Shown here: piece by piece, positions 21,469-39,174 of the stretch
How positions within the stretch are numbered: the first letter of the stretch is position 1
How the letters are laid out: every line of letters starts with the position of its first letter
DNA from: a virus
Taxonomy: Duplodnaviria > Caudoviricetes
DNA: 39,174 nucleotides
Strand: one strand, 5' to 3'
Virus record (IMG/VR): IMGVR_UViG_3300010052_000201
Coordinates: 1-39,174 of that record
Made by a program: the position numbers and the translations under genes
The notes under the pieces: generated by a model
Seen by the model: the letters and a program-made list of their open reading frames with translations, nothing else
Database searches by the model: none
What the model was told of the DNA's origin: nothing

Positions 21469-21720
21469 TCACCGCAAAGCCATTTCTTTGGCCGCGCATG
21501 CCGGGCACGGCAAAACCTCGATAACGCCGCGACATTTCGGGCAGAGCACCTTTTCGGGGAGTTTCATCGTTCCGAGCGGTGCACGAGCGAGAACCTTGCC
21601 CACGGTGTTGTAAGACGCGCCAATTCGCCGCGCGATCAACTTCTGAGAAAGCCCTAATTTTGCGAGGCGCAAGATATGGCGGGCGACTTCGGTTGGTAGG
21701 CTGCGGCGTCCTCGGCGCAT
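21469..21720 (-). CDS. HTH + C4 zinc-finger protein, candidate late-gene activator
   Basis: 'ILRLAKLGLSQKLIARRIGASYNTVGKVL' HTH; 'CPKC......PCPAC'; Q/Ogr-like position. Confidence 0.65.
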   Translation of the reverse strand: MRRGRRSLPTEVARHILRLAKLGLSQKLIARRIGASYNTVGKVLARAPLGTMKLPEKVLCPKCRGVIEVLPCPACAAKEMALR

Positions 21721-29552: not shown

Positions 29553-30608
29553 TTACTTCGCTTTCTTAATCCTCGCCCGCGCGTGCGTGGCCATTGTCGT
29601 CAACTGCGTGCGCTCTTCGTCGGTCTCGGCCAGCGCGGTCTGCTTGTCGAACCAAGCCGAAACTTGCTCGACCGTCTCGCAGTCGAGAAACCCTTGCCCA
29701 GCGGCTTCGAGAAACTCGGGGCGGTAGTCGAGTTGCTGATCGCCGTCGTCGGCGAGCTCGCCTTGGTGGGATTCGTCTTCGATCAGCGATTTTTGTTCGG
29801 CGGGCTTTTCCGCTTGCTTTGCGGGCAATGCCGTTTGCTTTACAAAGTCCGATAGCTGATCAACCGTGCGGATCTGCTGCGGCGATTCGATATACGACTG
29901 CGGCGGCGGTTCGTGGTGCATTCGGTCAAGGTCGTCATCGGTCATAATGCCGAGCATCAACTCGGGACGGTGGCGGCGAGCCCACTTTGTAGCCCCGGTG
30001 TAAAACAGCTTTTGCTGCGGGTCCGTTATCCACATCTTGTTATCCGTCTTGGCTTGGCCAACGGTGATCCGAATGACTTTTACGCCAAGCATGGTCAAGT
30101 TTGTTTGCGCTTCCGAATCGGATTCGTCTTTCGCGTATCGATTCAAGAGCGGATAGGCTTCGCGAGGGATTTCCCTTTGCGATCCGTAGATTACGGCCGC
30201 GAGGTTGTCGCCTTTGCCGCCGTTGTAGATGACCCCCAGCGGCTCAGCGTTGCCGGCTCGAGCGTTAATCACGGCGGCGATCAGCTTGCCCTGGAATCCC
30301 AGTTTGTTCGCGACGACGTAGGTTTCTGGCGCGACAGCGAAGGGATCGAAGCCCCAGCGAAAAGCTTGGTTGACGATCAAGAGACAGTTGCCCGCGATTT
30401 GCTCGAACTCGAAGTAAGCTTTAGTCTTCATGTTCATGCAGAGGTGATCAGGGATCAGCGTTGCGCGGGCCATCGATTGCGCGATGCGCCACATCTGCTC
30501 ATACCTGGCCGTGTCCATAAGCTGGCTGCACTCGTCGCGAACGATCAGCCGTTCCTTTGGCGCCGGTTTCTTCTCTTGCTGCACTGGTGCTAGTTCTGCG
30601 GTTGACAT
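29553..30608 (-). CDS. RecT-like ssDNA annealing protein
   Basis: 'IPDHL...NCLLIVNQAFRWGFDPFAVAPETYVV..KLGFQGKLIAAVIN...DPQQKLFY...WARRHRPELMLG'; adjacent to YqaJ. Confidence 0.8.
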   Translation of the reverse strand: MSTAELAPVQQEKKPAPKERLIVRDECSQLMDTARYEQMWRIAQSMARATLIPDHLCMNMKTKAYFEFEQIAGNCLLIVNQAFRWGFDPFAVAPETYVVANKLGFQGKLIAAVINARAGNAEPLGVIYNGGKGDNLAAVIYGSQREIPREAYPLLNRYAKDESDSEAQTNLTMLGVKVIRITVGQAKTDNKMWITDPQQKLFYTGATKWARRHRPELMLGIMTDDDLDRMHHEPPPQSYIESPQQIRTVDQLSDFVKQTALPAKQAEKPAEQKSLIEDESHQGELADDGDQQLDYRPEFLEAAGQGFLDCETVEQVSAWFDKQTALAETDEERTQLTTMATHARARIKKAK

Positions 30609-30656
30609 ACTCAATCCCCTTGTGATGACGGACAAAAAAATAGTGAACGGTTTGAT

Positions 30657-31592
30657 TTACTTCATTCGCAGCAGCACGCGCGACACTCGCTCGTGAGCTT
30701 CAACGGCCTTGATCTGCGAGACTTGTTCTTTCCAGCGATAGCGACCGCCGCCAGGCAGTTCCCCAAACGTTGCTTCGCCGATCGCGGCCTTGATCTTGTT
30801 TTCCAAGAGTGTCTTCTTGGCTTCGGCTTCCTTGATCGTGAGCTTCACGGCGGCTAGTTCTCTGTCCCACTCGGTAGCCTCTAGGGGCAACTGAACCGCA
30901 ATACCGTTGTCGCGTGGGTAGAGCGTTTTGAGTGCTCTGGCCGTCGCTTCGCTGCCGTCTATCGGCGGCATTTCACCGCTCTTGACGTAGCCCCAAAACG
31001 ATTCGAGCGTTGGGAGCAATGTCTCGTTGATGAAACGCTCGTTTCGTTCGACGAGGATCGAGATCGGAGTATTGCCGCCCACGAGACCGAAGAGGTATGC
31101 GTGACTTGCCCCAGTGACCGCGAGTTGATGCTGTACTTGGATCTGGTACTTGAGCGGGCCGGTCCCCTCTTCCCATTCCTTGCGGTTGAAGTAATCGACG
31201 TTTTTCATTTCGACTGGGACCGGGCCGTAATCGTTATGCACTGCGAGGCCGTCGAGCGTGGCCCCCATAAACGGCAGATCGGGATGACGATAGATGCTGA
31301 ACTCGCCCGGGCTTTGGCATTCGATGCCGTGCTGATCGGCGAAGATCGCGCGGAGCGCCGGCTCGATCAGCTTGCCGATTCGCATGCGTTGGGTTTCTTG
31401 GAAGTCTTCCTCGCCGTGAACCTTGTTTGCCCACACGGTCAAAGGCGATTGGCTTGCGTAACCCAGACCGAAGATTGCCGCGCTCTCGCTGGCGCCGATG
31501 GAACGGCGGCGGGCTTCAAGCCACTCTTCGCGGTTCTTGCAGACAACGGGCGGGTAAGGCAGATAGCTGGCGATTGGTGCGGCGGTGACCAT
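30657..31592 (-). CDS. YqaJ-family exonuclease
   Basis: 'EWLEARRRSIGASE', 'ATLDG', 'VEMKN', 'YQIQVQHQLAVTG'. Confidence 0.9.
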   Translation of the reverse strand: MVTAAPIASYLPYPPVVCKNREEWLEARRRSIGASESAAIFGLGYASQSPLTVWANKVHGEEDFQETQRMRIGKLIEPALRAIFADQHGIECQSPGEFSIYRHPDLPFMGATLDGLAVHNDYGPVPVEMKNVDYFNRKEWEEGTGPLKYQIQVQHQLAVTGASHAYLFGLVGGNTPISILVERNERFINETLLPTLESFWGYVKSGEMPPIDGSEATARALKTLYPRDNGIAVQLPLEATEWDRELAAVKLTIKEAEAKKTLLENKIKAAIGEATFGELPGGGRYRWKEQVSQIKAVEAHERVSRVLLRMK

Positions 31593-31608
31593 GTGAACCC
31601 CAAGAGGA

Positions 31609-31646
31609 AAAAGGAAAAAAGTGCCGTGAATCCACCCCGTCACGGC
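31609..31646 (-). terminator. Terminator-like hairpin
   Basis: GCCGTGA-N10-TCACGGC ACTTTTTTCCTTTTT on minus. Confidence 0.55.
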
Positions 31647-31682
31647 GTCGGGTGACCTGCCAGCGCGACCAGACGGATATTG

Positions 31683-32333
31683 TCAATCGCTGGCTGTGGC
31701 TTCTTGCTGGGCTTGCTGTTGCCAAAAGTCTTCCATGCGAAGACCGATCTTTTCTGCGAGACCGGGGCCGATGCCCTTAATGTCGCTCAGCTTCTTGCCG
31801 CTCTCGTTGAACTCGAGCAAGTCCTCGACCGTCAAAAGCCCTGCGTCGGCGAGCTTCTGCGCGACCGTTGGCGTCATAAGGTTTTCGAGCAAGACGCGCT
31901 TCGCATCGTCGCTCACTCCATCGACCGGCAAGACGGGCTCTTTGCTTGCGTTGTCTTCGGCGAATTGCAGAATCGGGCGGTTGGCATCGTTGGCCGCGGC
32001 TACGATGCACTGGCGCAGACGATAGACAGCGTCGTCGTAATCGCCCTTGGCTGCCTTGGCCGCGCTCTTGGCGTCGAGGTAGCGGGCTTCGGCTTTGACG
32101 CAGTAGCCTTCCAACTCTTCGATCTGCTTGAGCAGTTGATCTGGCGTTAGCGGTTTGATCGGCGGCGATGGTTGCCACTGCTGCGGCTTGTCGGCGCCGT
32201 CGGCCGGGTCACTGTCAAGATCAGGGCCGTCATCAAGCTCCGTGCCTTCACCTTCGAGGTCTTCGTCGGCACTAATAACGCAATCATCTTGCTCTTCGTC
32301 TTGTTCAATTACGGCTGCGGCTTTACGTGGCAT
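31683..32333 (-). CDS. Acidic hypothetical protein with C-terminal helix-hairpin-helix
   Basis: 'KLADAGLLTVEDL...LSDIKGIGPGLAEKI'. Confidence 0.65.
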   Translation of the reverse strand: MPRKAAAVIEQDEEQDDCVISADEDLEGEGTELDDGPDLDSDPADGADKPQQWQPSPPIKPLTPDQLLKQIEELEGYCVKAEARYLDAKSAAKAAKGDYDDAVYRLRQCIVAAANDANRPILQFAEDNASKEPVLPVDGVSDDAKRVLLENLMTPTVAQKLADAGLLTVEDLLEFNESGKKLSDIKGIGPGLAEKIGLRMEDFWQQQAQQEATASD

Positions 32334-32378
32334 CGCACAAACTCCCCTGAGAAATGGCTTCGAGATAGAAAAGAAACG

Positions 32379-32723
32379 CTAAACGCAAACAGCTTCGCGA
32401 TCCGCAACCCACTCAAGAACCTTGGCCGCGCTCAGCGACCAACGCTCACGAGGGGCACCGGCCAGGAACTCACGAGCGAATCGCACGTAGTTGGCCAGCG
32501 CAAAATCATCGCCAGCGGCATCGGCGAGAATTGCCAGGGCTAGCTGCGCCGTGCCAGGGCTGTTGCGGCCCCAGTCGATGACCGGCGAGAGATTCAGGAG
32601 GTCTTGCCGGGTTGGCAAGTCTCGGTACGCACGGCCGTTGAAGATTTGGCCGTAGTGAACGCCGGCACGGAGCGGGCTGCGGCAGGCGTAGTATTCGGTT
32701 TGGCTTTGGCTTCCGTGTTGCAT
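32379..32723 (-). CDS. DUF6166-like protein
   Basis: 'SPVIDWGRNSPGTAQLALAILAD'. Confidence 0.6.
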   Translation of the reverse strand: MQHGSQSQTEYYACRSPLRAGVHYGQIFNGRAYRDLPTRQDLLNLSPVIDWGRNSPGTAQLALAILADAAGDDFALANYVRFAREFLAGAPRERWSLSAAKVLEWVADREAVCV

Positions 32724-32908
32724 GGCGTGATTTCCTTATCAAGAACTTCCGTGCGGTAAATTCGGTATGACTTCGGGGCTTCAAAGGCAAGTTTGACCTT
32801 CGGCCCCTTGTGGCTCTTGCGAACTTCTGAAATTGAGACCTCGATCTTGTCGCCGTTGGGGGCGGTAATCACGATGGTTTCGGGCAAATAGCGTGAAAGT
32901 ATCAACAT
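32594..32908 (-). CDS. csrA: CsrA/RsmA-family RNA-binding protein
   Basis: 'MLILSRYLPETIVI...IEVSISEV...VKLAFEAPKSYRIYRTEV'. Confidence 0.8.
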   Translation of the reverse strand: MLILSRYLPETIVITAPNGDKIEVSISEVRKSHKGPKVKLAFEAPKSYRIYRTEVLDKEITPCNTEAKAKPNTTPAAARSVPAFTTAKSSTAVRTETCQPGKTS

Positions 32909-33032
32909 GGTTTTCCTTCCGTGGTTAGGGATCAGCGGGGTACTTGGCGAAGTGCCGTTCCCCCGGTTGCGATCCTCGCTGCCCGCGTCGTGCGGGCCCA
33001 TCCGTTTTCGCTCTCCAACTCCTGACAAAAAA

Positions 33033-33245
33033 CTAAAGCGTTCGCGATCCAGTTACGACGACTTCTTTTTCCTTGCTAAAATTCACAAGGAAGCCGATCC
33101 AGAGCAAAGCAACGATCGTCCAAACTACGCCACACACCCAGCCGGCCGGATCGAAGCGATCAAGCAACAGCCAGACAATGATCGTTAGGTGAATTGGTGG
33201 GTATGAAGGTATGCTCTCTCGTGCGATCACGTACTTTGTTGACAT
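33033..33245 (-). CDS. Small two-TM membrane protein
   Basis: Hydrophobic 'LTIIVWLLL' and 'WVCGVVWTIVALLWIGFLV'. Confidence 0.55.
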   Translation of the reverse strand: MSTKYVIARESIPSYPPIHLTIIVWLLLDRFDPAGWVCGVVWTIVALLWIGFLVNFSKEKEVVVTGSRTL

Positions 33246-33259
33246 TCAATTGGCCCTTG

Positions 33260-33320
33260 AAAAAGAAAAAATCATCCGGCCTCGCGGGACGGGGGCGGGG
33301 TCATCACACGCGAGACCGGA
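33260..33320 (-). terminator. Terminator-like hairpin
   Basis: TCCGGTCTCGCG...CGCGAGGCCGGA then TGATTTTTTCTTTTT on minus. Confidence 0.55.
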
Positions 33321-33329
33321 CAATGCCGT

Positions 33330-33800
33330 TCACCCGGCTTGCTTCACTGGCTCTTGCTTACCCCTTTTTCTTGGTGCGCACTCTGAATGGGCAGGCTCGG
33401 TAATCGCTCGCTCTGCCGGCCACCCAAGACGCTTGACTCGATGAAACACGGCATAGCCAGGCACAACGCAACGCGGGTCTTTTCCCCACTCGCCAGCGCA
33501 CTTTGTTTCATTGAAAGCCGTGACAAGAAAGCTGTTTCGCTTGTTACCGTTTTGCTGCTCACGTGTTGCCCAGCGGCAGTTTTCCGGCTCGTAATTGCCA
33601 TTCGTGTCGATTCGATCAATGCTCGTCCCGGCAGGCCGTTCGCCCATGTCGTCAACAAAGTTTTCAAACGACTCAAGCCAGCGCTGGCAAACACGAATGC
33701 CGCGAGCGCCATAGGCTTGGTATCTCGGATCGTTGGCGTCATAGCATCGCTGTTTCATGCTGCGCCAAACGACATAAAGAGGGTGCTTCGTCCAGATCAT
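33330..33800 (-). CDS. Free-standing HNH (homing-type) endonuclease
   Basis: 'W.SMKQRC...YGARGIRVCQRW..F..F..DMGERP...SIDRIDTNGNYEPENCRWAT'. Confidence 0.85.
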   Translation of the reverse strand: MIWTKHPLYVVWRSMKQRCYDANDPRYQAYGARGIRVCQRWLESFENFVDDMGERPAGTSIDRIDTNGNYEPENCRWATREQQNGNKRNSFLVTAFNETKCAGEWGKDPRCVVPGYAVFHRVKRLGWPAERAITEPAHSECAPRKRGKQEPVKQAG

Positions 33801-34024
33801 GCCATTGCCCTTTCTTTGACTGGCTGCTTGCGAATCCAATCGTTTACCTCATCCCCCATGAACCGAAGTCGATTGCTGCCGGGAATCAGCCGCGGGGCGA
33901 CTCCATCGGCTCGCATGGCGTCTTGGGCGTCTTCGCCGATCCCGAGATTTCGCAGATCATCAATCGTGTAACTGCGACGATCATCGATCACGCCGTAGCG
34001 TCGTTTTGTGCGTGGCTTGCCCAT
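33797..34024 (-). CDS. Excisionase-like winged-HTH protein
   Basis: Small basic protein; 'YTIDDL...RLRFMGDEVNDWI'. Confidence 0.5.
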   Translation of the reverse strand: MGKPRTKRRYGVIDDRRSYTIDDLRNLGIGEDAQDAMRADGVAPRLIPGSNRLRFMGDEVNDWIRKQPVKERAMA

Positions 34025-34106
34025 GTTATGCTTGGTAAGTCTTGGCTCGCGCCGCCGTTTGCTTGGTGGCGATGACGACGCGAGCCGCAACTAAAAAGGG
34101 TGGTGT

Positions 34107-34307
34107 ATGGGTGCAATCAATCCGAAGGGGTGGTTTACGTTCAACGAGCGACAGGGGATGCGGATTACGACCAACTTGGACAAGGTCGTTTGTGTTAAGT
34201 CCGACTCCAAGGGGCTGCCGTCAATCACGTTAGTTGGTGGAACCACTTACAACGTCGATGACGGCTCGCTTACCGAAGTAATCACAATGCTTAGGGCGAC
34301 GGCTTAG
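34107..34307 (+). CDS. Small antisense protein, FlbD/SwrD-like pattern
   Basis: 'ITTNLDKVVCV...SITLVGGTTYNVDD.SLTEVITML'; purine-rich leader. Confidence 0.4.
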   Translation: MGAINPKGWFTFNERQGMRITTNLDKVVCVKSDSKGLPSITLVGGTTYNVDDGSLTEVITMLRATA

Positions 34308-34581
34308 CTTCATCGCAGACAACTTGCCCGTCCGCGTTGACGTATGGCGGACCGCGAAAAACTGAGGCCAGCGATTCCTCGTGCGACTCCACAAAGCGCA
34401 CGAAGCGAATCGCTTTTTTTATTTGCTTTTCCGCCGACTCATCGAATATGTCGCGCGGATCGAGGATGCTGAGATAAGTTGCCGTAGACTTGAAGCACAG
34501 CGGCATCAAACTCTTGAACAAATCGCCCTGCATCGCGGCGTAATTCGCACGCGCCTCGTCGATCTCTTGTTGCGTTGGCAT
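34291..34581 (-). CDS. Hypothetical protein (cII position)
   Basis: TGATG coupling to Cro-position gene. Confidence 0.55.
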   Translation of the reverse strand: MPTQQEIDEARANYAAMQGDLFKSLMPLCFKSTATYLSILDPRDIFDESAEKQIKKAIRFVRFVESHEESLASVFRGPPYVNADGQVVCDEAKPSP

Positions 34582-34880
34582 CAGCCCACCTCGCGAAAAG
34601 GATTTTGGGAACGAATTTGGCTTGCTTGACCGGACGGCAGGATAAGGCCGCGCTTGATGCAATCAGCCTCAAAACGAGCCTTGGATTGCAGGTCCGGCAT
34701 GCGGTAACGACGCTGATAAAACCGATTGCTGCACTTGTCGCAGAGGCCGCGTCTCTTGGCTGGATTTGGGCACAAGAGACACTTGCCTTGTTTGACAAGA
34801 GCCTCAATTGCTTTGGCCCGCTTTCGAGAAACATTGGCCATCTCAAACATCCCGATAAATCTTGAAATTTGGTCAATCAC
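34581..34880 (-). CDS. Zinc-finger protein at Cro position (start uncertain: 34880 GTG, 34850 or 34841)
   Basis: CLLC-x5-RRGLCDKC...LILPS...NPF; first gene of leftward lytic arm. Confidence 0.75.
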   Translation of the reverse strand: MIDQISRFIGMFEMANVSRKRAKAIEALVKQGKCLLCPNPAKRRGLCDKCSNRFYQRRYRMPDLQSKARFEADCIKRGLILPSGQASQIRSQNPFREVG

Positions 34881-34914
34881 TGGATGCTCCAAGTAAGGGC
34901 TGCATCCATGCCGT

Positions 34915-34970
34915 AACAGTTCTGTTGCATATTAGTGACTGTATCGGACTTGTCAACAGTTTTGTTGCAT
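34915..34970. promoter_or_regulatory. Twin palindromic operator candidates bracketing leftward sigma70-type promoter
   Basis: AACAGTTCTGTTGCAT (34915-34930) and AACAGTTTTGTTGCAT (34955-34970); minus-strand TTGACA (34956-34951)-N16-TAATAT (34934-34929). Confidence 0.7.
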
Positions 34971-35061
34971 TGTTTCGCAGTGTGTCAGCACCGTGTCAAC
35001 GCAAGTATCAGCCGCGTATCAGGTTAGTGCGGGAAATTATTTTTCTCGCTATGCTTTTGTG

Positions 35062-35415
35062 ATGAGCAAAAAAACAACAATTGCCGAGCCGCAAACGGGA
35101 ATGCTTGGCTCGTGCTTGATATGTGGCACTCGTGGCACTGCTACAGCGCCACTACGGAGAGGCATTTGCCCGGCGCATTACATGCAGTTTCAGCGAACAA
35201 TCGCGGGGCTTCCTGCGGACAAAAGGCAGGAATACGAAGACGAGTTGATTGAGAAGAAACTTATCTTGCCGTCTCGCGTTGGTAGGCCAGCAGAGGACAA
35301 CCCATTTGCCGAGATTGCGGAGAAGTATCTGCCTGATAGAGTTAGGAAAGACATTGAGGCCGGCAAACGCGCTGCCTCAAAGATGATCGAGGAACAAAAG
35401 AAAAAAGGGGGCTGA
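35062..35415 (+). CDS. Zinc-finger protein at CI position, paralog of 34581-34880
   Basis: CLIC-x10-RRGICPAH...LILPS...NPF; first gene of rightward lysogeny arm; TATGCT 6 nt before ATG. Confidence 0.75.
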   Translation: MSKKTTIAEPQTGMLGSCLICGTRGTATAPLRRGICPAHYMQFQRTIAGLPADKRQEYEDELIEKKLILPSRVGRPAEDNPFAEIAEKYLPDRVRKDIEAGKRAASKMIEEQKKKGG

Positions 35416-35416
35416 G

Positions 35417-35926
35417 ATGCAAGAGACTCCAGAGATCCGCGTTCCACCGAAAGCACCGCCGCCGCGATTGACAAAGATTGAATTGCCGGACGGAGTAGAC
35501 GCAAATCCGTACCCCAGTGCGACATCGAAAACTACCGCTAAGCAGCGTGAGATTGCGCCGCTAGACTTCGCCCTAAGACTGGTTGCGTTTTTTGCTATCG
35601 GCCTAATGCTTGGGAGTGCGTTTTTCAGTGTTTCCGGCATAGGGCTAGCCGTTGGCGTGTTGACTCTTACCACTTGGCCGAAACACCGACTAGAGATTAT
35701 AGGTTGCGGCGTTTCGATCTTTATCGCGCTCCTTGCCTTGGCTTATCCGTACTTGAACGAAATGCAGCAAAGGGCGCACAGGGAAAGAGTTAGTGAGCTA
35801 CTGAAAAAAGGCGGCATAGAGAAAACCTTGGCAGAGCAAGAGGCCGAACGGGAAGCCCGTAGAGCAGACGCCGACAGGGAAACGCAAAAATTGCTAGACA
35901 ACGCTAACAGAGCGTGGAACAACTGA
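35417..35926 (+). CDS. Membrane protein
   Basis: About three hydrophobic segments plus C-terminal coiled coil. Confidence 0.7.
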   Translation: MQETPEIRVPPKAPPPRLTKIELPDGVDANPYPSATSKTTAKQREIAPLDFALRLVAFFAIGLMLGSAFFSVSGIGLAVGVLTLTTWPKHRLEIIGCGVSIFIALLALAYPYLNEMQQRAHRERVSELLKKGGIEKTLAEQEAEREARRADADRETQKLLDNANRAWNN

Positions 35927-35935
35927 GGGCAAACA

Positions 35936-36364
35936 ATGATCTACCTAAAAACCGATGACGGCATAAGCGGTCCAATCCCGCTGGATCGATGGACGCAACT
36001 TGAATTCGGCGGCAAACTGCCGCGTAACGCCCAGCGCGCGGACTCGAAAGACGGGCCTTGGACTCCGGTGTATCACGGACCAACGGCCGAAGAGATCGAA
36101 GCCGAGCTAGCCGCAAAGGCCGAGCGCGAGCGATACGCTAGGGAAATGGATCAGGCTATTGCCGACAACCGTTCTAGGAACGCAAGGCAGACCGCCGGCA
36201 ATGCCGTAGGCCTCTCGCTGGCTGTTGTCGTATTCGCGATGACGGGAATTGCATCGGCTTTTGTGATAGGTCCATTTGCCGTCATCCCGGCTGCTATCCT
36301 TGGGTTTGTTGCCTACTCCTTTGCTTTTCGCGCAACGGCTGCCGAACACAAAGACGCCAATTAA
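35936..36364 (+). CDS. GYF_2 (DUF4339)-like domain membrane protein
   Basis: 'YLKTDDGISGPIPLD...GKL...GPWTPV' plus two C-terminal TMs. Confidence 0.55.
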   Translation: MIYLKTDDGISGPIPLDRWTQLEFGGKLPRNAQRADSKDGPWTPVYHGPTAEEIEAELAAKAERERYAREMDQAIADNRSRNARQTAGNAVGLSLAVVVFAMTGIASAFVIGPFAVIPAAILGFVAYSFAFRATAAEHKDAN

Positions 36365-36548
36365 CCGCCGCCGAGATCCGCGCCCGCGCCGAGGCCGAAC
36401 GCAAGGCCAGGGACGGGAAGTGAACCGGGGCCGCGGCCGAGCGGATTGGGGAGTTTTTTTGAGCGTGTTTCACTCCCGGGATTCTGTTAAAATGTTTGTC
36501 ACTTGAGCCGCTATTTCGGCGGCTGTTTTCATGCGCAGGAGCAGATCA

Positions 36549-37379
36549 ATGTCAACCGACCTTTCCCTCTTTCACTTCGATGATGGCCGGCAAAGCTTTG
36601 AGGATATGGGTAAGCCAAATGGCGTGACACGTTGGCACGAAAGCGTTCTGCGCGAGGCGTTGGGCTACCAGTCTGATGATGGCTTTAGTAAAGCGATCAA
36701 TCGCGCAATGCAAGCCTGTCTATCGATCAGCGTCGCGTGTGAAGACCACTTCCACCGCCAGTCTGATGGAACATATTTATTTACAAGGTTCGCTTGCTAT
36801 TTAATAGCGATGAACGCGAGCCCAAAGAAGCCGCAAGTCGCTGCAGCCCAAGCCTACTTTGCGGCAATTGCCGAGACTTTCCAGAGCCACTTAGAGCACT
36901 CAAACGCCATAGATCGCGTGCTAATTCGCGATAAAATCACGGACGGACAGCGCACGCTATCCGGGGTTGCGAAGGCGCATGGCGTTACGTGCTATGCGTT
37001 CTTTCTGGATCAAGGTTATCGAGGCATGTACAACATGAGCCTCAAAGAATTAACAAGATATAAGGGTGTTAAAAAGAATGAGCAATTAATTGACCGAATG
37101 GACAAAACCGAATTAGCAGCCCACCTTTTTCGAATCACGCAAACCGAAGCGAAGATTAAAAACGAAGGACTTCAAGGCCAAGTGAGTCTCGAGAAAGCCG
37201 CGCGATCTGTTGGAGCGAAAGTAAGAAGCACTGTCATTGAGATAAGCGGCAAAGCGCCAGAGAACCTGCCAATTGCCGAGAACATCAAAGACGTAAAGAA
37301 GAAACTTAAGGGAACGACCAAAACCATGAAGGCGATTGACGATAAAAAGAGGAAGCTACCAAAGCCGAAAGACAGCTAA
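36549..37379 (+). CDS. dinD: DinD-like (BRO-N related) protein
   Basis: 'FED...W....L...LGY...F.KAI.RA', 'TRFACYLIAMNASPKKPQVAAAQAYFA', 'GYRGMY', 'ELAAHLFRITQTEAKI'. Confidence 0.85.
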   Translation: MSTDLSLFHFDDGRQSFEDMGKPNGVTRWHESVLREALGYQSDDGFSKAINRAMQACLSISVACEDHFHRQSDGTYLFTRFACYLIAMNASPKKPQVAAAQAYFAAIAETFQSHLEHSNAIDRVLIRDKITDGQRTLSGVAKAHGVTCYAFFLDQGYRGMYNMSLKELTRYKGVKKNEQLIDRMDKTELAAHLFRITQTEAKIKNEGLQGQVSLEKAARSVGAKVRSTVIEISGKAPENLPIAENIKDVKKKLKGTTKTMKAIDDKKRKLPKPKDS

Positions 37380-37561
37380 CACCCTTTCCACACCCGCACA
37401 AAAACCCATCAAAATCTATCTCCATATAGCCCCTCACCTTGCAAATAATCAGCACATCTAGTGCTATCAAAAAACTTGCATACGAATTCATTTAGTGTAC
37501 AACAATACACCGATGGATGACTAAAGAACGGACGCGGCGACTTTTCGCGAGGGGTGTAATT

Positions 37562-38017
37562 ATGTTTGTTTCGGGGAGTGTTTTGCATTGTTCTTACCCA
37601 ACCGACAACCGTGTCGGGGCCAAGACTCGACTAGAGCCGCGGCGGATCGTGGTTCGTTCTGAGCGGGACCTGAGGGAGTTGCCGCTCGATCCGGTAACGC
37701 TGCGACTGCGACCAAAAGTGCGGCGCGGTCAATTGCTGATCGTTGGTTACGATCTCGACCGGCGCCGGACCCGCAAGTTCTATTTTGACTCGATGCGCTC
37801 GCTGCGGGTATCTGATCGGCCTTTGATGCGTCTCGGCATTTACAGCGCGTTTGGCGAAGACGAGCCGCGTTTGTTTGGCGGGCCGTTGACTGATTGCCGG
37901 GCAGATCAAGAGCACGCGCGGCGGGTGATCGAGGCCCTGAACCGCTGGCTATACGAGCAAGGGACCGGGAAGTGTGCCGGGCTGTTTCCTCTTGTGGCGA
38001 AAGCGAGGGCCGCGTGA
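37562..38017 (+). CDS. WYL-like domain protein (alt. start 37517)
   Basis: 'LIVGYDLDRRRTRKFYFDSMRSL' resembles WYL core; stop overlaps integrase GTG. Confidence 0.5.
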   Translation: MFVSGSVLHCSYPTDNRVGAKTRLEPRRIVVRSERDLRELPLDPVTLRLRPKVRRGQLLIVGYDLDRRRTRKFYFDSMRSLRVSDRPLMRLGIYSAFGEDEPRLFGGPLTDCRADQEHARRVIEALNRWLYEQGTGKCAGLFPLVAKARAA

Positions 38018-39174
38018 ACATCAAGGTCTATGTTCTGCGGCGCAAGGATCGCGCGGACTATCAACTTGCGTACAAGGATCCGGCCACAAGACGCCGGCAC
38101 ACGCGAAGCGCAAAGACTTCGAATCTCAAAGATGCCCGCGAGGCTGCAATCCGCTGGCAGATCGAACTAGAGCAGGGCGGGGCGGTTGCAGATCGAACAA
38201 CGTGGGAAGTCTTTCGGCATCGTTTCAGTGACGAGCATTTGATTACGCTCGCGCCAAAGACTCGAAAGGCATACAAAACGGCATTGAATCACTTCGAGCG
38301 ACTGATCGGCAAACCGGTCAATATGAACCTTGTCGATGCCGGCATGCTGAGCAAGTTCAAGGCGAAGCTGTTGGGCGAGGCAATTGTTACGACCACGGTT
38401 CGCAGCTATCTCAATTTTGTGATCTGCGCGCTCTCTTGGGCCAAGTCGGTCAACATCATGAAGGTTGCGCCAAAGATCAAGCTGCCGAAGCTGCAGCAAG
38501 ACGAAAAGGCCATGAGCGGCCGGCCCATCACCGACAAGGAATTCGAGCACCTGATCGCCACGGTAAAGAGTGTGCGGCCAAACGATCGAGCGAAGTACGA
38601 GCGGTTTATCCGCGGCTTGCGGCTCTCGGGACTGCGGATCGAAGAGGCCGAAAAGCTTGACTGGGAAAAGGGGCCCGTTCGGCTCGATCTGTACGGGGCC
38701 AGGCACCCCCGCATATTGCTGGGAGTCGAGGGCCACAAGGGACGGCGTAACGAGATACTGCCCATCACGCCAGACTTTGCGGAATTCATCGCTCAAACGC
38801 CTGAGAGCGAGCGTAAGGGCCGGGTGTTCAAGGTGAGCTCTAAAGCTCGCCGGATCGTGTCGGCAATCGGCAGAGCCTCAGGGATCATCATTAATGAGGC
38901 CGACGGCACTTACGTCTCGGCGAAGTATCTGCGCAAGACGTTTGCAACCTACTGGTCGTACCGAGTGCGGCCGATCATTCTCCAAAGACTCATGAGGCAC
39001 AAGGATATAAAAACAACGCTCAAGTTCTATGTTGCGCAAGAGGCCGACGACATTGGCGACGAATTGCAGCGGGCATACAATGTCCACCACTTTGTCCACC
39101 AAACCGAGTCAAAAAAAGAGGGTGCCCAAAAAACAGATAGCGAAAAGCCCGGGGAAAAGTACGCATCCGGGTAG
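38014..39174 (+). CDS. int: Tyrosine integrase
   Basis: N-terminal arm-binding region; 'SGLRIEEA', 'HKGRR', 'KYLRKTFAT', 'LMRHKDIKTTLKFY'. Confidence 0.92.
   Translation: MNIKVYVLRRKDRADYQLAYKDPATRRRHTRSAKTSNLKDAREAAIRWQIELEQGGAVADRTTWEVFRHRFSDEHLITLAPKTRKAYKTALNHFERLIGKPVNMNLVDAGMLSKFKAKLLGEAIVTTTVRSYLNFVICALSWAKSVNIMKVAPKIKLPKLQQDEKAMSGRPITDKEFEHLIATVKSVRPNDRAKYERFIRGLRLSGLRIEEAEKLDWEKGPVRLDLYGARHPRILLGVEGHKGRRNEILPITPDFAEFIAQTPESERKGRVFKVSSKARRIVSAIGRASGIIINEADGTYVSAKYLRKTFATYWSYRVRPIILQRLMRHKDIKTTLKFYVAQEADDIGDELQRAYNVHHFVHQTESKKEGAQKTDSEKPGEKYASG
39081..39100. repeat. Direct repeat TGTCCACC x2 (12-bp spacing), possible integrase arm-type sites
   Basis: tgtccaccactttgtccacc near 3' end of int. 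Confidence 0.35.

Follow-up and report, generated by a model that had tools for sequence, protein, structure and literature searches.

The DNA analyzed here, referred to as the window, is a 39-kb provirus record (IMGVR_UViG_3300010052_000201; 39,174 nucleotides, nt). Its minus strand carries genes for an HK97-like head and a siphovirus tail, replication genes, RecE/RecT and early genes, and its plus strand carries accessory genes and an integrase gene. The two directions of transcription part at 34880-35062, between two small head-to-head genes that encode putative zinc-finger proteins of 99 and 117 amino acids (aa):

34581..34880, minus strand: left-type zinc-finger gene (99 aa), which heads the early operon; product likely Cro-like
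35062..35415, plus strand: right-type zinc-finger gene (117 aa) with a C-terminal helix pair and a Lys-rich tail; product likely the lysogenic repressor

A preliminary description of this DNA had proposed that these genes are divergent paralogs forming a lysis-lysogeny switch at the position where lambdoid phages use the helix-turn-helix (HTH) proteins CI and Cro. Both open reading frames (ORFs), all of the motifs quoted for them and the divergence of transcription at the pair were found in the window. One DNA sequencing run is identical to the window at every letter of 30000-39174, although it may be the window's source, and no RNA data set was listed as containing the sequence.

The left gene most likely starts at the GTG at 34880 (GGAG 8 nt upstream; the frame is open to 34892), and the resulting protein agrees with many homologs in length (98-100 aa) and N-terminus. 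The right gene starts at the ATG at 35062. The public gene call for it begins at residue 41 and yields a 77-aa product that has lost the finger, which is partly why the pair is easy to miss. The two proteins are 29% identical over 72 aa (BLASTP, E 7e-7), their Smith-Waterman score was equalled in one of 5000 shuffles, and the family profiles of the left and right types match each other with a probability of 99.8% (E 1e-28). The end-to-end likeness reported earlier was therefore upheld, and by these comparisons of sequence the two genes are paralogs.

From 1.84 billion representatives, a profile search with the pair retrieved 481 clusters (E ≤ 0.001). We aligned 146 sequences (150 listed clusters and the full right protein, minus one fragment and four repeat proteins), of which 65 are left-type, with an N-terminal helix and an end at NPF, and 81 are right-type, with a helical, Lys-rich C-terminal extension. 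The common core reads Cx2C-x(5-12)-RG[LIV]C-x2-[H/C/D]-Y-x2-F-x-R ... FE-x3-I-x2-G-x-LL ... NPF, and the three cysteines and the glycine are invariant. The fourth ligand is mostly His in both types (left-type, His 77% and Cys 20%; right-type, His 80% and Asp 14%; H79/C12/D8 over all 146). The C4 finger facing a C3H finger, to which the preliminary description had drawn attention, is thus true of this phage and not general; since the contrast is not conserved in the family, the suggestion that cysteine oxidation triggers induction is unsupported. The left/right tree needs a single change (support 44), the tree itself being weak and incomplete.

Neither window protein matched a Pfam, PHROG or NCBIfam entry, the family is unnamed in these collections, and the ESM Atlas matches were likewise unnamed (≤0.90). 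As had been claimed, profiles revealed no recognisable HTH or S24 domain in either protein; an XRE/Cro HTH domain was also absent from 58 left-type members. Word-index homolog searches returned nothing beyond the window's own proteins, protein-pattern locus searches found no relatives (80 terminase loci that were collected do not enter the counts below), and a PDB sequence search with the finger proteins gave no significant match. Longer fused forms were sought among 7993 scored candidates and none was significant, which is weak evidence. Related finger modules can be repeated two or three times within a polypeptide, and there is also a shorter variant, in one case with His and Cys exchanged (P0022, P0045, P0115; L192, L248:6321-6773).

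Both types show the arrangement of a treble-clef finger, i.e. a Cx2C knuckle and a C-x2-C/H at the start of a helix, with conserved ligands (secondary structure taken from the model), and from these ligands we infer that both bind zinc. The AlphaFold2 model of the left protein (alignment of 58; predicted local distance difference test score, pLDDT, 90) consists of a helix, a zinc knuckle and two helices, and in that of the right protein (alignment of 75; pLDDT 85) two long helices come after the knuckle. Conserved N-terminal helices are a mark of the left type. Structure prediction had been put forward as a check for an ordinary fold; the models gave a knuckle with long helices and no significant fold match of any kind. 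Foldseek found nothing at E ≤ 0.001 in the PDB and viral structures, and the best fold-search Z scores (3.2 and 4.7) are below significance and are not evidence of a new fold. Residues 20-51 superimpose on the A20 treble-clef finger with Z 2.5 and a root-mean-square deviation of 1.4 Å over 32 residues, which is sub-significant, and Zf_WRKY19 matched weakly in 5 of 58 left-type members. The finger and first helix carry a net charge of about +4 in both types, positive in more than 90% of members.

To see how the genes recur, we assembled 60 loci from degenerate DNA patterns, 20 regions from a genome profile search and the window itself, and scored them at 30 bits: 20 loci had no match, 19 had one and 42 had two. 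Every one of the 42 two-match loci is divergent, with one left-type and one right-type gene, and, duplicates being among them, they reduce to 26 distinct clusters (70% core identity) with RG-to-RG distances of 319-491 nt. The independent genome profile search gave the same picture (15 of 15 pairs divergent, in 13 genomes). The expectation that homologs would recur as divergent pairs at switch positions was thus borne out, the surrounding genes being of the switch type.

The named genomes with the paired layout all belong to Planctomycete bacteria. Of 15 GTDB pattern matches ten proved genuine, and each of these ten records bears the name of Pirellulaceae, of one of its genera or of Planctomycetota in its title. 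A profile search of Pirellulaceae matched 23 of 401 genomes, 13 of them with pairs, and in a 401-genome sample of the phylum only the centre genome matched; this search scored 12 candidates per genome, so that misses are likely. Solitary right-type genes occur in host-like surroundings at five loci (L119, L125, L178, L179, L180), two of the forms being extended to 314-400 aa with no Pfam match; these genes are possibly retained repressors of lost prophages.

The genes around the pair recur in the 26 clusters as follows. Co-directional behind the left gene lie an excisionase-like gene (within 2.5 kb in 16 clusters, and in two more by eye), a CsrA-like gene (9 clusters) and recombination genes. 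Behind the right gene lie variable accessory genes, a conserved gene of 140-165 aa (17 clusters) and the integrase gene (17 clusters), which was never found on the left side (0/26). The finger genes are therefore the divergent first genes of the early and the integrase-side operons, as CI and Cro are. No S24 peptidase was detected in ten virus records, two of which are rated 100% complete, and no HTH_3 domain above the cut-off in five. The window conforms to the statement that it holds no other CI-like gene: it has no S24, and its sole HTH_3 signal (21592-21672) is below the cut-off and 13 kb away. The accessory region that separates the right gene from the integrase, which holds HsdR_N, BRCT, TIR, nuclease and ion-channel genes in six right operons (L087, L091, L135, L176, L177, L186), is likely a defence or moron hotspot.

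The spacer between the two genes contains the following features:

34915..34930: second copy of a 16-nt repeat (34955-34970; 94% identity, spacing 40), over the predicted early transcription start
34929..34956, minus strand: predicted early promoter (-35 TTGACA, 16 nt, -10 TAATAT), similar in type and place in most homologous spacers
34952..35006: candidate operator array of five degenerate 11-bp units, extending from the early -35 into the palindrome
35000..35028: 29-bp IHF-like palindrome with YAA-N4-TTR halves, abutting the right -35; the copy in this window is weak
35027..35055, plus strand: predicted right promoter, whose -10 (TATGCT) ends 6 nt before the ATG

With the exception of the 16-nt repeat duplication, which is known from this window only, the plan extends to the homologous spacers. 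A near-consensus promoter of the left operon was found across the 26 spacers, and the palindrome had leave-one-out support (p ≤ 0.04) in 24 of them. The right ATG lies 30-34 nt beyond the palindrome, and in 19 of 26 spacers it is preceded at 5-8 nt by a -10 element, with no ribosome site (shuffled mean 4.8, maximum 11); the mRNA of the right gene is accordingly predicted to be leaderless. Between the early -35 and the palindrome, the distance takes the values 34, 45 or 56 bases in 20 of 26 spacers and comes within one base of them in 24 (the L136 palindrome having been re-picked by hand), that is, 1 mod 11 in 20 and 0-2 mod 11 in 24. With promoter and palindrome removed, the sequence between them is periodic at 11 bp (lag-11 z 11.7, lag-22 z 6.4; 24 loci, L138 and L174 being left out for want of a clear promoter), and these same spacers show no periodicity at lag 10 or 12. 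Identity at lag 11 is 0.42 in this window and 0.45 across the 24 loci, compared with 0.27 after shuffling, and the sequence of the 11-bp unit varies from phage to phage.

The YAA-N4-TTR halves are part of the IHF consensus, according to excerpts of PMC9820253. Since the palindrome has such halves and similar palindromes are present in host chromosomes, we tentatively assign it to a host IHF-like bending protein, and for the same reasons rejected it as an operator of the finger proteins; the host palindromes exceeded the reversed-pattern control in two of four genomes only. No LexA-like box was found in the spacer.

The early leader (34820-34925, minus strand) and 23 homologous leaders are rich in ANGGA (39 sense and 3 antisense occurrences; 13.4 in shuffled sequences). 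Because a CsrA homolog is often encoded in the same operon, Csr-type translational control of the left gene is likely. In the window, the early operon includes:

32594..32911, minus strand: CsrA-like gene (Pfam CsrA, E 4e-13)
33797..34024, minus strand: excisionase-like small gene, second or third in the operon, of a BLAST family whose members have weak HTH_17 matches

An HNH endonuclease gene (33330-33800) sits within this operon as an insertion, and at the end of the early region a small ORF (21472-21696) encodes a putative HTH (HTH_3, below the cut-off) plus a zinc ribbon, a candidate late-gene regulator.

Pairing, gene context, the lack of S24 and the plan of the spacer all speak for a non-HTH finger pair at the CI/Cro position, as had been proposed; binding, repression and competition for operators are the parts that we infer. 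The divergent pair likely acts as the lysis-lysogeny switch of this phage group, and we consider it reasonably probable that the right protein serves as repressor in lysogeny, with the left protein competing for the 11-bp array in the manner of Cro. The right protein would be made at a low level from its leaderless mRNA and would bind head to tail along the array, covering the early -35 and thereby shutting the strong early promoter. The left protein, the first product of the early operon, would bind the same array with different preferences and turn the right promoter down. Bending of the DNA at the palindrome by a host IHF-like protein would explain why the length of the array varies by whole helical turns only. 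A hint of shared operators comes from the variable finger residues, of which cognate left and right proteins have more in common than permuted pairs (116 identities versus 99.5, p 0.002-0.003; the residue after RGLC is shared in 7 pairs, 1.5 being expected), a weak hint in view of the eight related tests run and of kinship, which the test ignores.

Neither finger protein has a self-cleaving domain, and DNA damage would therefore act through a separate promoter. A candidate lies before the integrase gene:

37496..37509, plus strand: candidate LexA box over the predicted -10 of the pre-integrase gene, with one mismatch; the sole such site in the window
37517..38017, plus strand: conserved 166-aa gene whose stop overlaps the integrase start; candidate antirepressor
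38014..39174, plus strand: tyrosine integrase gene, at the right end of the window

Two boxes recur at this position. The first, the candidate LexA box TGTAC-N4-GTATA, of which the window site is a copy with one mismatch, lies over the -10 in 9 of 20 host lexA promoters (L195-L197, L228-L247), four others of which have a different common motif, TGGAC-N5-TTTAG. The second, TGAC-N7-GTCA, has 48 sites in five host genomes compared with 3 for the control, is found upstream of recA in three of the five, and in 12 sites examined (7 Pfam-matched, 5 not) precedes genes for ribonucleotide reductase, PriA, two other helicases and a WYL protein. It resembles the DriD site ATACGAC-N7-GTCGTAT given in excerpts of PMC10853764. 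Upstream of the conserved pre-integrase gene, in 45 dereplicated regions, the second box occurs 23 times, the first 5 times and either one 27 times (0.2 and 0.5 in shuffled sequences); as the patterns had initially been derived from 19 of the 45, the host-genome counts are the independent part. In five host genomes (G001, G453, G574, G624, G737) a candidate box of an SOS-independent DNA-damage regulon, GACC-N5-GTGTC, stands before recA, priA, the ribonucleotide reductase gene and a small WYL gene; it is also abundant in G001, where the LexA search found none. The possibility that the hosts have no SOS response was rejected, LexA being present in 59 of 61 genomes.

Given the LexA-type or DriD-like boxes upstream, the operon of the pre-integrase gene and the integrase is likely damage-inducible. 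A damage promoter, with a LexA box here and in some phages and a DriD-like activator box in others, would drive both genes. That the small protein then disables the repressor is a guess made by analogy with Sar and Tum. An antirepressor route to induction is plausible, but as the gene is also found apart from finger pairs, it may simply accompany integrase expression. Induction by DNA damage through a separate boxed promoter and an antirepressor is the weakest step of the scheme, and we regard it as doubtful. The pre-integrase protein faintly resembles WYL proteins (PF13280, E 0.11, in one of 18; hhalign to a host WYL protein, E 0.22), has no sequence match in the PDB and no metalloprotease motif, and a complex prediction with the right protein scored 0.01, which speaks neither for nor against an interaction. 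A DinD-like/BRO-N gene (36531-37379; NF008573, E 1.5e-51, below the cut-off), which lies in the right operon with its own intergenic gap upstream, was rejected as a general antirepressor, as it is not common to the other loci.

Several observations weigh against the scheme as a whole. Among the 19 single-copy loci, three lack upstream sequence, and the other 16 (14 distinct) have room for a partner and none is there. At two of them, L092 and L191, an unrelated protein is encoded opposite the left gene. The residues behind the covariation signal are not shared by the left and right proteins of this window. The candidate antirepressor gene was not found in 9 of the 26 pair clusters, several of which have short flanks, and a further 20 loci carry it where the nearest 6-8 kb or so contain no finger gene scoring over 30 bits (one of these loci has a distant finger, and some lie among housekeeping genes). 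The excisionase-like gene behind the left gene raises an arrangement like that of 186 and P2, in which the array would belong to an Apl/Cox-type protein, the right finger protein would repress from other sites and the left one would be an auxiliary regulator. In excerpts of PMC7498355, Apl binds one-turn direct repeats between pR and pL and at att; phage-specific repeats near the integrase ends are weakly enriched here (mean z 0.7-0.8; 15 loci, att sites unmapped), an excess that is confounded by base composition. The array is also strong in three loci (L133, L137, L177) in which no excisionase-like gene was detected behind the left gene, although HTH_17 genes are present on the opposite side in L137 and the L177 locus appears decayed, and on balance we find this arrangement unlikely.

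Heteromeric antirepression and roles other than repression are less likely still. The left protein might, as in TP901-1, be an antirepressor that binds its paralog and poisons the oligomer with no competition for DNA: its gene occupies the position of MOR, the shared fold makes mixed oligomers plausible, and the conserved N-terminal helices are peculiar to the left type. Retention of the invariant RG-C motif and of the basic helix is nevertheless just as strong in that type as in right-type proteins, and the protein opposite some left genes is unrelated, which makes this role quite improbable. It is equally improbable that the pair are activators, or RNA- or polymerase-binding regulators of the Ogr, Com or TraR kind, with lysogeny held otherwise, for instance by a host repressor. 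Most of the zinc-finger regulators known from phages act as activators or bind RNA or polymerase, and the CsrA-type motifs in the left leader suggest that part of the control is post-transcriptional. TraR/Orf73 is an example from excerpts of PMC9239242. The finger proteins, however, do not match the Ogr, Com or TraR families, the near-consensus early promoter would need repression and not activation, and neither the missing LexA-like box in the spacer nor the missing S24 gene in the ten records points to another repressor.

In L092 (6180-6641), L191 (1391-1813) and L257 (5028-5465 and 4587-4883) another helical, Lys-tailed type of protein with no Pfam match is encoded at the repressor position, opposite either a left finger gene or a small gene that is likewise unknown; it is possibly a second non-HTH switch module of these phages.

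Extended to its limits, the competition of right and left proteins on the array would mean that the temperate phages of Pirellulaceae have a complete lysis-lysogeny circuit with no HTH repressor, in which two ancient paralogs with a hitherto undescribed DNA-binding zinc-finger fold compete along a phage-specific, IHF-phased 11-bp array and damage is signalled through a conserved antirepressor that can be placed equally well under LexA or under a DriD/PafBC-like host regulon not yet described. We offer this full version tentatively and hold it to be more doubtful than true. If the reading of the pair as a switch is correct, an unrelated protein domain has been used to rebuild a textbook decision circuit, and nature thereby provides a test of what in the lambda switch follows from its logic (paralogous competitors, a leaderless repressor mRNA, release upon damage) and what is an accident of HTH proteins. 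It would also provide a compact prokaryotic family of zinc-finger DNA-binding proteins with 26 natural specificity variants and their own repeat arrays, a marker for temperate Planctomycete phages overlooked by repressor profiles, and, for Pirellulaceae, candidate damage boxes of both the LexA and the SOS-independent kind. The literature listings, with subscription papers and bioRxiv supplements outside the search, contained no described finger-pair switch; the type of circuit is known, and its protein parts have not previously been described for this role.

The closest parallels are the CI/Cro switches of lambda, 434 and N15, with which the pair shares its place as the divergent first genes of the lysogenic and early operons. 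The paralogous DNA-binding domains predicted here recall 434, and the predicted arrangement of a strong early promoter opposite a weak one that yields a leaderless repressor mRNA recalls lambda, where the cI mRNA is leaderless. In contrast to these switches, the finger proteins have a zinc-ligand motif, show no HTH by sequence profile and lack S24 self-cleavage, tandem 11-bp direct units would replace the three palindromic operators, and the spacer has an IHF-like site. Phage 186 has a non-cleavable repressor that is induced by the LexA-controlled antirepressor Tum, and our scheme likewise has a repressor with no self-cleavage and a candidate LexA-controlled antirepressor. One-turn direct repeats between two promoters are shared with 186 CI/Apl and P2 C/Cox (excerpts of PMC7498355). 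The predicted promoters are back to back here, whereas those of 186 and P2 are convergent; both first genes are finger paralogs, and the excisionase-like gene is separate and lies downstream.

Other systems resemble the locus in part. In ICEBs1 the order is immR-immA-int with the excisionase gene on the other side, which corresponds to the predicted repressor, small conserved gene, integrase and opposite excisionase-like gene seen here, but our small gene has no metalloprotease motif and the predicted repressor has no HTH match. Ros/MucR, Ogr and Com are prokaryotic zinc regulators. Compared with treble-clef fingers (A20, WRC/WRKY19 and HNH-associated), the family has a similar geometry of knuckle plus helix, all matches being sub-significant, and differs in an added helix and in the G-x-LL and NPF elements, for which we found no counterpart. 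The SPbeta system SroF/MrpR-Sar, as far as excerpts of the sources describe it (10.1101/2025.11.27.690993; PMC10516654), uses a fold other than that of HTH CI as its master repressor, inactivated by a small LexA-controlled antirepressor, a role for which we have a candidate; SroF differs from the finger pair in being integrase-like in fold and unrelated in sequence, and in having no paralogous partner.
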